From a virus: a stretch of 64,000 bases of DNA. A program made the position numbers and the translations under genes. The stretch is taken from the IMG/VR virus record IMGVR_UViG_3300028549_001513; one strand, given 5' to 3'. The notes beneath the pieces were generated by a model that saw nothing but the letters and a program-made list of their open reading frames with translations, was not told the DNA's origin and did no database searches. Positions 41,001 through 44,000 of the stretch are shown here, in pieces. Within the stretch, counting starts at the first letter, position 1. Each line of letters starts with the position of its first letter.

Positions 41001-44000
41001 AAGTCCATCCAAGCATCCTTCATAACATCAACATCTCTTTTAGTATTAGAGCTAATAGTTTTTATTGACACGTGATCTGGCTTTCTTATAGATTCAGTAG
41101 AATATAGAGTGTCTATCTCAGCTACAAATGAATTTATGATTTCATTGTTTTTAAATTCGCTATACTTTGTAGACGTTCTTATTGCATTTTGTATTCTATA
41201 CAATCTCTTAGCGGTAGTATCGTTTCCGTAAAACAATGACTTGATATCAACGCCTCTTGACTCAGCTAGGTCTCTAAAAAACTTTTCTTTTATGTATGAA
41301 TCTATTGCTCTTGATATTTCTTTTGCAAACATTAGATTTGTTTTCTTACCAAATAAATTAGCAACATGATCTATGTATCGCTCAACAGACTCAGTAGTTC
41401 TAAAAAACAGTCCATCTGTAACCGCTTTTGCGATAGAAGTTATATTGTCTAGTTTATGGTCTATAAAAGTTCCAGTAAATAAGTCATCTGAATTTGCAAA
41501 TAATTTAGACTCCTCTCCGAATCTAATGTCATCTACGCCCTTATTGAAGAATCTCAATTCTTGGAATGTTTTACCATACTTCTTGTTATCTACTTGAGAG
41601 TATTTAACCAAAGAAGATAACGAATTTGCAAATGGAGCTAATTCACTATATGTCTCAATTATCATTAATTGATTAAAATACCAATCAAATGTCTCTTCTT
41701 GCGTCAAGTTATTTCTAAGGAATACTTTGTCTAACACATGATTGTTATCCAATACCAATCTACCATCTTTTCTTTCAGCAGTAGTTAGGAATGTAGACTC
41801 AAGCAAGTCCTTCTTATCTTGATTACTACCCGCCAATTGCTTGGCCTTTTCAATATACTCATTTTTTACTTTATTTATTGCCTTTGTTTCTGCATTTCTT
41901 GATGCACTATCATCTACTCCGTATTTACCAGATCTAGATTCAAAGTCAAAAGAAATATCTTTTAATGCTTTCTGAGATAAAAAATAGAAAGTAGACTCTC
42001 CTTTTCCAGCCCTAAGTAACATTGACGTCATTTGATAAGTCATCTTATTTACACCAAGTCTAACGATATATGGGTCTTTTGCAACGTCAACGTGAGCATT
42101 AATCATGGCAGACAGCCAATCCAATATTCTCTTTCCATCTATACCTTTTATATTTGATAGACTTCCTATTTTGTGCTTAAGTACTGTGTCTATATTAGAA
42201 TTAAAGGATAATCCAGTCATTTGCCCAAGAACATGATGTGCATTGTTAAGTGCAAACGGAGCTATACCGCTTTTGCCTCCTGCATACTCAGATTTCTTTC
42301 TGGATTGATAAGAAGGAGTAGCTGTATTAAATGGAGTTAAATTCTTTTTATTCTCAGTTAAACTTTCGATATCCTTTAAGACTACATTTTTTAACTCATC
42401 TGTAACTGTGTCAAGAGGCTGTCTTGTTTCATTTACAGTAGTAGTTTCTGTTATAGCAGCCATCATTACGTCAAGAAGCCTATTTGTAATAGCACCAATC
42501 GAATTATTTTTGTATGGATCCTCTATATTGTCGTCGAACTGATCTATACCTATAGAATCATTTATACTAAATACTGGCTTCTCTCTAGTGTCATCTCTTG
42601 ATATGTCTCTTTGTCTTTTATACGTATATCTAGCTAAAAATAACTTATCAATATCAAAGTCAGACCCAGTTAGTTTAGTAAATTCAGATGGAAGTATAAT
42701 AGTATCAGCAATAACCTCTTCTATTACATCGACAACTTTAAGACCAGATACAGATGATAATCCTTGTGTAGGAACACGATATCCTATTGCTAATGGTCTT
42801 GATTCCTTTCCAATTATTCCTTGAGATATTAACCAATTCTTCTTCTCTACATACGACGCCTTTTTAAGTTCCTTTGGAATTATATCTTTAAATAAGTTAA
42901 GTGATACAACGCAATCCATTGATCCATCATCGTTTCTAAACCTAAGCCTTTCTCCATTGTTAAGTAAACGAGCACTCCCATTTCTAGCCTCAAACTCTGA
43001 TTGAGTGATTTTGCCTTTCATAAGGCTTTCTGCGTCTATTGACTTCATACCAAAGACAGACATTTGAATAAACATCCCACCTGGGGTCTCTATATCAATT
43101 ATTTTCTTTCCAAGCATTGAGATTATCCTAGACTCAACCCATCCGTTATCAGCCATAGCTTGCAACGGAATGAATTCGCTATCCATATAGTCTTTTAACT
43201 TTTTAACGAAGTCGCTAGGCATTCCAGAGTTTTTGGCATCTTTGTATAACATCGCTGTTATCTTTCTTGAATTCACGACGACATTTCCCGCTTCATCATA
43301 GGAGATACCAAGTTCTTTTGATACCGACTTAACACCTTTGTCTGATATTGCATTTAGGCAATTATTCCACATTGATATTAGCTCGGCTCCAGTAGCTCCT
43401 AATTTTCCATTAAATGTAATATTTGAATAGACTTTAGATGCCACTATGTTTGACATACTAGCTTTAATTGGCTGAGTAGCTATAGCAATTTCTGGATGCT
43501 CATGTGGATCTGTCAGCAATTGTCTTCTTAGATATTTAAAGTCTTGAGAAGTTACTTTCATAGATCCAAGATCAGATATTTGGTCGTTGTTAGAGTCAGT
43601 ATAATATGATATTGCTTTGTCATTACCTACTTTAACAGCGCTATTGAATGGAATCATATCAATCTTACTCATCGTAGGCTCAGTAGTATTCATTCTGTCA
43701 TATAGGCGCCTTAAATCTCCAGTGGCTATAGATTTAAATAATGTAAACATAGCCATTTTGTCTAGAATAGGTATGTTAAGTTTATTTTCTACATCGTATT
43801 TATCACCGTAGTAAATCATCTTTAATGGTTTCATGACCATTCTTAATGCATCATTATATCTAGTGGAGTCAGAAAGCCAGCTTATGTCATCAGATTCAAG
43901 TATATCAAACGCTTTTTGCATGTCCTCATTCCATTCACCAAGCATCATCGCTATCTTCTTATGCATTATAGGAGATATAAATACAGTAGCATCAGTTTCA

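Follow-up and report, generated by a model that had tools for sequence, protein, structure and literature searches.

The window analyzed here, the whole 64,000-nucleotide stretch of IMG/VR virus record IMGVR_UViG_3300028549_001513, carries on its minus strand a giant open reading frame (ORF) of 4797 residues that is crossed by a single DFDID motif. The translation around the motif reads ...PSEFTKLTGSDFDIDKLFLARY..., and it confirmed to the nucleotide the position, 42647-42661, given in an earlier sequence-only reading of the same DNA. The predicted product has the makeup of a virion cargo polyprotein that combines a zincin-type motif, a module similar to the RNA polymerase (RNAP) gp66 of phage phi14:2 and a superfamily 1 (SF1) helicase domain. 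The gene stands in a block of cargo genes that follows a Crassvirus muzzle gene (Table 1). The assignment of DFDID to the catalytic loop of a virion RNAP (vRNAP) is built on homology, conservation, predicted fold and genomic context, all of which were computed here.

Homology of the giant protein to phi14:2 gp66

When the complete ORF was compared by phmmer with every PDB sequence, a single polymerase was matched (E = 3.8e-31). This was 6VR4, the structure of gp66, which is the only crAss-like vRNAP with a solved structure (Drobysheva et al., bioRxiv 10.1101/2020.03.07.982082; Nature 2021). The landmarks of gp66 are a Connector (residues 1095-1238), the DFDID motif (1361-1365), a bridge helix (1529-1559) and a trigger loop (1598-1636), and the enzyme needs Mg2+ as well as each of the three aspartates (10.1101/2020.03.07.982082). 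The phmmer alignment pairs 'ltgsdfdidkl' of the giant protein with 'ktgsdfdidkm' of gp66, laying DFDID residue for residue onto 1361-DFDID-1365, and this loop match sits inside a significant alignment of 1200 residues. In native gp66 numbering, residues 2258-2523 of the giant protein align with 517-771, residues 2804-3325 with 957-1428, and residues 3296-3495 with 1463-1663.

The match was widened with profile hidden Markov models (HMMs) built from relatives of the giant ORF. These paired residues ~1830-2240 with gp66 96-524 (E = 2e-22), residues 2250-2790 with 514-949 (E = 4e-46), and residues 3530-4020 with 1719-2100 (E = 1e-18). The phmmer and profile matches therefore indicate that residues ~1830-4020 are colinear with essentially all of gp66 (96-2100). 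The sequence-only reading had put the unassigned sequence flanking the motif at over 1000 residues each way; the lengths hold, but the word "unassigned" does not, since ~1830-4020 match gp66. No Pfam RNAP domain was found in the giant ORF at E <= 0.1, the RNA_pol_Rpb1 families included, and QDE-1 (2J7N) was not among its PDB sequence matches.

Conservation was assessed across a large family of relatives. A word-indexed protein search recovered 5 homologues with a sequence query and 16 with a profile, and it was an exhaustive HMMER search that revealed the family. With residues 2700-3700 as the query, 1680 cluster representatives were matched at E <= 1e-3, including 388 at E <= 1e-30; they are mostly 4000-6400 residues long, and one of them is identical to the window protein. 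Of the 147 best representatives of the family, 130 retain the pattern G[SAT]D[FY]D[IV]D, and the motif of the relatives reads DFDID or DFDVD, consistent with the rule of isoleucine or valine at motif position 4 in the gp66 family (10.1101/2020.03.07.982082). A 45-sequence alignment contains the invariant positions D2809, K2866, K2887, K2929, Q2982, G3113, P3181, R3214, P3216, G3251 and D3253, accompanied by the nearly invariant F3254, D3255, D3257 and K3258. The three invariant lysines (K2866, K2887 and K2929, the last within SAVKVG) sit in the region of the first, beta-like barrel and plausibly match basic residues of the beta-type barrel. In the trigger-loop equivalent, an H/D/K/D/P/Y set is invariant in alignment A1.

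Predicted fold and comparison with other polymerases

A first AlphaFold (AF2) model of residues 2700-3700, built from 20 sequences, reached a mean predicted local distance difference test (pLDDT) score of 65, with the C-terminal third below 50. In Foldseek it retrieved 6VR4 at E = 1.1e-21 with a global template modelling (TM) score of 0.35, and its further matches were weak and mainly to largest RNAP subunits. This mediocre model gave way to a shorter one of residues 2790-3300, based on a 32-sequence alignment, with a pLDDT of 80.1 and a predicted TM score (pTM) of 0.77. Its comparison with the PDB returned 6VR4 at E = 1.7e-21 with a probability of 1.00, a TM score of 0.67 and a root-mean-square deviation of 4.8 A. 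The superposition extends over 479 columns and spans the beta-like barrel region, the Connector and the beta'-like barrel; barrel topology was judged by this superposition and not by strand-by-strand tracing. Both barrels are located at or N-terminal to DFDID (residues ~2804-2959 and 3117-3294) and do not lie on both sides of the motif.

Nearly all of the ~49 PDB matches that follow 6VR4 are beta'/Rpb1-type subunits: the beta'-like chains of the AR9 and PhiKZ non-virion RNAPs, bacterial beta', archaeal A, Rpb1, A190 and African swine fever virus RPB1. The beta'/Rpb1/A190 chains are weak matches (E from 7e-4 to 0.1), and P74 gp62 is another (E = 0.08). Among BFVD structures, the best matches to the model were all crAss-like giant proteins, with that of cr118_1 first (TM 0.81) and that of cr50_1 at 0.76. 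The sequence-only reading had named gp66, YonO and QDE-1 as candidates for a Foldseek search with residues 2700-3700; gp66 was recovered through 6VR4, but QDE-1 was absent from the top 50 PDB matches of both models, and YonO did not appear among the top matches either.

The protein shares with gp66 an identical GSDFDIDK loop with isoleucine at position 4, a homology that includes the bridge helix and trigger loop, two barrels with a ~140-residue Connector in one chain (as judged from the AF2 model and the 6VR4 superposition), and the same place in the late block of virion-cargo genes. The two differ in architecture: gp66 is a stand-alone protein of 2180 residues, whereas the window module is embedded in a 4797-residue chain, extended by ~1830 residues on the N-terminal side, where the zincin motif lies, and by ~780 on the C-terminal side, where the SF1 helicase lies. 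In phi14:2 the gene for the HExxH protein, gp65, lies downstream of that for the RNAP, whereas the zincin motif of the window lies upstream in the same chain. The same layout occurs in two members of the Suoliviridae, as cr118_1 gp14 (Besingivirus coli, NC_055872; 4946 residues, annotated as 'exonuclease V') and cr50_1 gp059 (Cohcovirus hiberniae, NC_055868; 4774 residues, annotated as 'DNA helicase'). Both have HExxH near residue 1700, GSDFDIDK near 3200, a Walker-A helicase at ~4280-4470, the same flanking genes and a near-terminal cysteine, but they are just ~29-31% identical to the window protein across the 3000 residues in common, and ~27% identical within the helicase. At the sequence level the polymerase is best described as a divergent member of the known gp66 family, ~30% identical to its classified relatives.

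Similarity to multisubunit RNAPs is more remote. As in their beta' subunit, DFDxD lies on the last double-psi barrel strands with an R-x-P-T element (here GYRVPTQG) ~35 residues upstream; bacterial beta' carries NRAPTLH ahead of NADFDGD. Unlike beta', the window protein has isoleucine in place of glycine at position 4 and holds both barrels in one chain, and the similarity is undetectable by sequence search, the Rpb1 sequence families included. The window polymerase is a remote homologue of beta' and not a member of that family. QDE-1, YonO and the RNAPs of P23-45/P74-26 likewise have a single-chain, two-barrel build with a Connector between the barrels (10.1101/2020.03.07.982082). Neither QDE-1 nor YonO gave a significant direct match in structure or sequence, and their kinship to the window polymerase rests on the published analysis of gp66. 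The QDE-1/YonO-type motif has glycine at position 4. A functional analogue is the vRNAP of coliphage N4 (Schitoviridae), also a giant protein that is packaged in the capsid, coejected with the DNA and engaged in early-gene transcription; it is a T7-like single-subunit, right-hand polymerase of unrelated fold.

Interpretation, competing explanations and proposed mechanism

We conclude, with a probability of roughly 0.93, that DFDID is the catalytic, Mg2+-coordinating loop of a crAss-like virion-type RNAP (gp66 family), a DNA-dependent enzyme with two barrels in a single chain. The sequence-only reading had suggested an enzyme of this kind from the motif, and gp66 homology, the 6VR4 superposition and the Crassvirales context now bear it out.

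Several observations weigh against this conclusion. Identity between the giant protein and gp66 in the core is just ~19-23%; neither Pfam nor PHROG recognises the polymerase part, and a scan of the whole ORF with these families picks up the helicase alone. The beta-like barrel, which the sequence-only reading could not verify by eye, is now supported by gp66 mapping and superposition, but it has no independent structural match to any beta subunit and is placed via gp66. Beyond residue ~3330, where the bridge helix and trigger loop lie, the model is of low confidence. Position 4 of the motif is isoleucine and not the glycine of cellular RNAPs, so that by analogy with gp66 the loop would have to refold; in the gp66 crystal the DFDID loop indeed adopts a conformation unable to bind Mg2+ (10.1101/2020.03.07.982082). 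Activity, packaging and ejection of the giant protein would follow by analogy with gp66.

Four other explanations were considered. That DFDID is a chance DxDxD in a long, aspartate-rich structural protein with no polymerase function might be argued from composition, because a protein of this length and aspartate content is expected to contain ~2.4 DxDxD and 0.10 DFDxD motifs, and from the lack of Pfam/PHROG coverage in the region. DxDxD occurs once in the 4797 residues, as DFDID itself, and the bare motif taken without context exceeds chance only weakly. It is the context that lifts it beyond chance: the exact alignment with the catalytic loop of gp66 inside a long significant match and the conservation of the motif in the family, together with a predicted fold around it that matches 6VR4 and beta' subunits. 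On these computational grounds we ruled out a chance motif, to which we give practically no probability. The polymerase module could instead be a degenerate, catalytically dead relic kept as a structural or ejection protein, as the isoleucine at position 4, the conformation of the gp66 crystal loop and the very fast evolution of crAss-like RNAPs might suggest. We rejected this reading as improbable: the three aspartates are intact and strongly conserved, the RxPTQG element, barrel-1 lysines, bridge helix and trigger-loop motif are conserved with them, and gp66 is active despite the same isoleucine.

An assembly or annotation artefact fusing separate protease, polymerase and helicase genes would fit with phi14:2, which splits the corresponding functions over g065, g066 and g067, and with the crAss001 RNAP, reported as 1-3 subunits. 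Against this, the ORF is uninterrupted and an identical protein is already present in the JGI/IMG and Logan collections on two contigs, the longer of which measures 97,164 bp, a usual length for crAss genomes. More than 100 independent cluster representatives of 4000-6400 residues have the same order, and the RefSeq ORFs of cr118_1 and cr50_1 bear the same three motifs. Fusion of the polymerase and its neighbours into one huge polyprotein has been described for some phages (10.1101/2020.03.07.982082), and reviews cite RNAP genes of up to ~6000 residues as a hallmark of the crAss-like group. An artefact was rejected as extremely unlikely. A further alternative is that the enzyme is chiefly a QDE-1-type RNA-dependent RNA polymerase and not a DNA-dependent transcriptase, for which it may be said that QDE-1 is the closest non-phage structure to gp66 (10.1101/2020.03.07.982082). 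Since gp66 is a DNA-dependent enzyme that transcribes early genes of its phage, QDE-1 is missing from the Foldseek matches noted above, and the genome is that of a double-stranded DNA (dsDNA) phage, this alternative was rejected as very unlikely.

For the preferred reading, a vRNAP of the gp66 family, the biology of gp66 offers a template. This enzyme is packaged in the virion, enters the host along with the DNA and carries out rifampicin-resistant transcription of the early genes; in vitro it uses single-stranded DNA (ssDNA) or denatured DNA and hardly any dsDNA, and its early transcripts have no common upstream motif (10.1101/2020.03.07.982082). Virion delivery and rifampicin-resistant early transcription are known from phi14:2 alone. 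For the window phage, packaging, ejection, catalysis, template preference and any cleavage are what we infer. The giant protein would be made late, packaged in the capsid and ejected with the DNA into a Bacteroidota-type host, probably in a partly unfolded state. On the beta'-like barrel, the three aspartates would then bind the catalytic Mg2+, facing the beta-like barrel, and the early genes, probably the replication block on the plus strand at 1..32 kb, would be transcribed without the host polymerase and hence also when rifampicin is present. The same polypeptide carries, upstream of the polymerase, a metalloprotease motif of zincin type that may serve in processing or activation, and an intact SF1B helicase apparently inserted just before a conserved C-terminal tail.

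The main yield of the analysis is that the window is confirmed as crAss-like (Crassvirales) and that the active site of its vRNAP is located; the added value beyond this is limited. The assignment is useful for annotation: homologous Crassvirales vRNAP ORFs are publicly named 'DNA helicase', 'exonuclease V', 'hypothetical protein', 'DprA-like protein' or 'nuclear pore complex protein-like protein', with the polymerase unannotated. With zincin motif, polymerase and helicase in one chain, the protein is also a candidate construct for the study of activation after ejection and of access to an ssDNA template, two questions left open by the phi14:2 work.

Flanking domains of the giant protein and genome context

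Table 1. Features of the giant ORF and its neighbourhood, with positions in the 64,000-nucleotide window (aa, residues of the giant protein unless a gene length is given)
Feature	Coordinates	Strand	Basis
Giant ORF, 4797 aa; predicted virion cargo polyprotein (zincin motif, gp66-like RNA polymerase, SF1 helicase)	38024..52417	-	Sole ORF across the motif site, uninterrupted
gp66-equivalent virion RNA polymerase module, aa ~1830-4020	40358..46930	-	phmmer against 6VR4/gp66 and profile HMMs
First (beta-like) double-psi beta-barrel region equivalent, aa 2804-2959	43541..44008	-	Maps to gp66 957-1094; model strands superpose on 6VR4
Connector equivalent, aa 2960-3116	43070..43540	-	Maps to gp66 Connector 1095-1238; helical in the model
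Second (beta'-like) double-psi beta-barrel equivalent, aa 3117-3294, with GYRVPTQG and the DFDID loop	42536..43069	-	gp66 mapping, model, Foldseek matches of beta'/Rpb1 type
GYRVPTQG, aa 3212-3219, in the beta'-like barrel	42761..42784	-	R3214 and P3216 invariant
DFDID, predicted Mg2+-binding catalytic loop, aa 3253-3257	42647..42661	-	Translation, gp66 alignment, family conservation
Bridge-helix equivalent, aa 3367-3397 (…EYAGGKSGIAPFAL…)	42227..42319	-	Maps to gp66 1529-1559
Trigger-loop equivalent, aa 3431-3468 (…INAHVDVAKDPYI…)	42014..42127	-	Maps to gp66 1598-1636
Dda/RecD-like SF1B helicase domain, aa 4253-4713	38279..39661	-	Pfam, PHROG and PDB matches; motifs
Conserved C-terminal tail, aa 4757-4797, ending ...KKCY (Cys4796)	38027..38149	-	Shared with the helicase-less relative P0023
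Zincin-type motif, aa 1705-1756, with HEAYH (aa 1705-1709) and EEFIAEKF (aa 1744-1751)	47150..47305	-	Conserved pattern just ahead of the polymerase module
Acidic low-complexity linker, aa 921-1020	49358..49657	-	33-37% D+E; FEDDDMF twice (aa 984, 1011)
N-terminal region with Gly/Ala-rich hydrophobic stretches, aa ~290-620	50558..51550	-	Translation
Crassvirus muzzle protein, 2063 aa, upstream of the giant ORF	56906..63097	-	Pfam PF25731, E = 7.7e-198; PHROG 28748
168-aa ORF, C-terminal end of the muzzle PHROG	56398..56904	-	Starts one base past the stop codon of the 2063-aa ORF
Pair of cargo-block genes (719 aa, 597 aa) separating the muzzle gene from the giant ORF	52441..56395	-	BLASTP: cr118_1 gp12/gp13, cr50_1 gp057/gp058
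1852-aa gene downstream of the giant ORF, closing the cargo block	32462..38020	-	BLASTP: cr118_1 gp15 (3e-90), cr50_1 gp060 (6e-86)

The helicase domain is recognised by Pfam AAA_30 (5.8e-26) and UvrD_C_2 (5.2e-07), by PHROG 325 (7.8e-65) and by PDB matches to RecD2/Dda, and all seven SF1 motifs (I, Ia, II, III, IV, V and VI) are intact, as for an SF1B helicase. Its nearest phage relatives are the fused domain of cr118_1 and, after it, the stand-alone, Dda-like SF1 helicases encoded by crAssphage (KP06_gp14 of Carjivirus communis) and by other Crassvirales. These match 77% of the helicase query at 28-29% identity and have all SF1 motifs, but in crAssphage the helicase is a separate replication-module gene of ~465 residues, whereas the window helicase lies inside a late virion-cargo ORF; no second SF1 helicase copy was found in the 64-kb window. 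The domain is present in just 11 of 125 giant relatives, and on a rough neighbour-joining tree built from the polymerase core the carriers lie dispersed, requiring at least 8 changes. In P0021, the nearest relative, there is a helicase neither inside the giant gene nor beside it. The helicase looks like an insertion ahead of a conserved C-terminal tail, because P0023, which has no helicase, retains the counterparts of residues 4003-4182 and of the last 41 residues of the window protein.

It is conceivable, though we hold it to be doubtful, that a crAss SF1 helicase was inserted into the vRNAP polyprotein and is packaged and injected with the polymerase as an active 5'-3' helicase. Because gp66-type enzymes need ssDNA in vitro, such a helicase would, speculatively, be an attractive partner. 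If so, it could supply the ssDNA template or help to draw the genome in, providing a built-in answer to how polymerases of the gp66 type start on incoming dsDNA, and the patchy distribution of the domain would reflect repeated gain or loss of this coupling. Our literature search found no vRNAP-helicase fusion and no discussion of a helicase partner, although published figures may show the fusion; annotators evidently noticed the helicase domain in the database records of homologous ORFs.

The C-terminal tail carries a further conserved feature. Of 129 giant relatives longer than 3500 residues, 118 have a cysteine among their final 5 residues (91%, with ~1% expected), and cysteine makes up 0.2% of the residues of giant relatives overall. 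The last residues of the window protein (aa 4793-4797, ...KKCY) are encoded at 38027..38041. Near-terminal cysteines also occur in phi14:2 gp66 (…KQECK) and gp67 (…NTIC), and in cr118_1 and cr50_1. A search for literature on a C-terminal cysteine in crAss proteins returned nothing relevant. The near-universal cysteine at the end of the giant proteins is a simple and testable feature.

On the N-terminal side of the polymerase module, HEAYH followed by EEFIAEKF has the form of a gluzincin-type signature. Of 95 relatives, 94 retain HE[AGTS]xH, followed ~40 residues further on by EExLAExFR, and HExxH also occurs at residue 1734 of cr118_1 gp14 and residue 1665 of cr50_1 gp059. The region has no Pfam match and no PDB sequence match, and phmmer and profile HMMs detected no similarity to the HExxH protein gp65 of phi14:2. 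A role of the motif in processing or activation of the polyprotein is plausible. By the same two methods, neither the zincin region nor the N-terminus nor any neighbouring gene showed homology to phi14:2 gp65, gp67, gp68, gp69 or gp70. Given the lack of detected homology to gp65 and gp67, we do not claim that the giant ORF corresponds to gp67, gp66 and gp65 joined together.

The N-terminal region is common to the relatives P0021, P0022, P0029 and P0043 and to cr118_1 and cr50_1. One 19-residue span of the giant protein exceeds a KD hydropathy value of 1.4 (AFLSGAYGAILLGGGMGAV, residues 593-611). As a guess, the hydrophobic stretches may interact with a membrane as parts of an ejection protein. 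The repeated FEDDDMF heptads of the acidic linker recall, by association only, the acidic-aromatic tips of SSB-type C-terminal tails.

At the protein level the cargo block is syntenic with described phages: the 719-residue, 597-residue, giant and 1852-residue ORFs correspond to cr118_1 gp12-15 and to cr50_1 gp057-060, and the same gene order is found in P0021, the closest metagenomic relative. The layout and gene order of the window thus resemble those of Suoliviridae. When the 14.4-kb ORF was compared by megablast with 50,697 phage records, no nucleotide match emerged, and relatives were seen at the protein level alone; the window phage is therefore a divergent, undescribed member of the Crassvirales. 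It probably falls outside the described genera, as a distant relative of cr118_1 and cr50_1.

In the relative contig L005, crAss_MUZ and crAss_MUZ_C are likewise separate genes, the latter of 353 residues. The split of the muzzle gene in the window seems normal, and its 168-residue C-terminal piece is much shorter than the one in L005.

The replication genes of the opposite (plus) strand, at ~1..32 kb, code for a DnaB-like helicase, a primase, a Sak4-like protein and an exonuclease. An 879-residue ORF of this block (26280..28919), lying between the primase and a peptidase-like gene, has no PHROG or Pfam match and occupies the place where a DNA polymerase might be expected. Three tRNA genes were called on the same strand: Glu-TTC (3221..3311), Pro-TGG (6975..7050) and Arg-TCT (12502..12577). 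The tRNA-Glu call is oddly long at 91 nt, possibly owing to an intron or a long arm.

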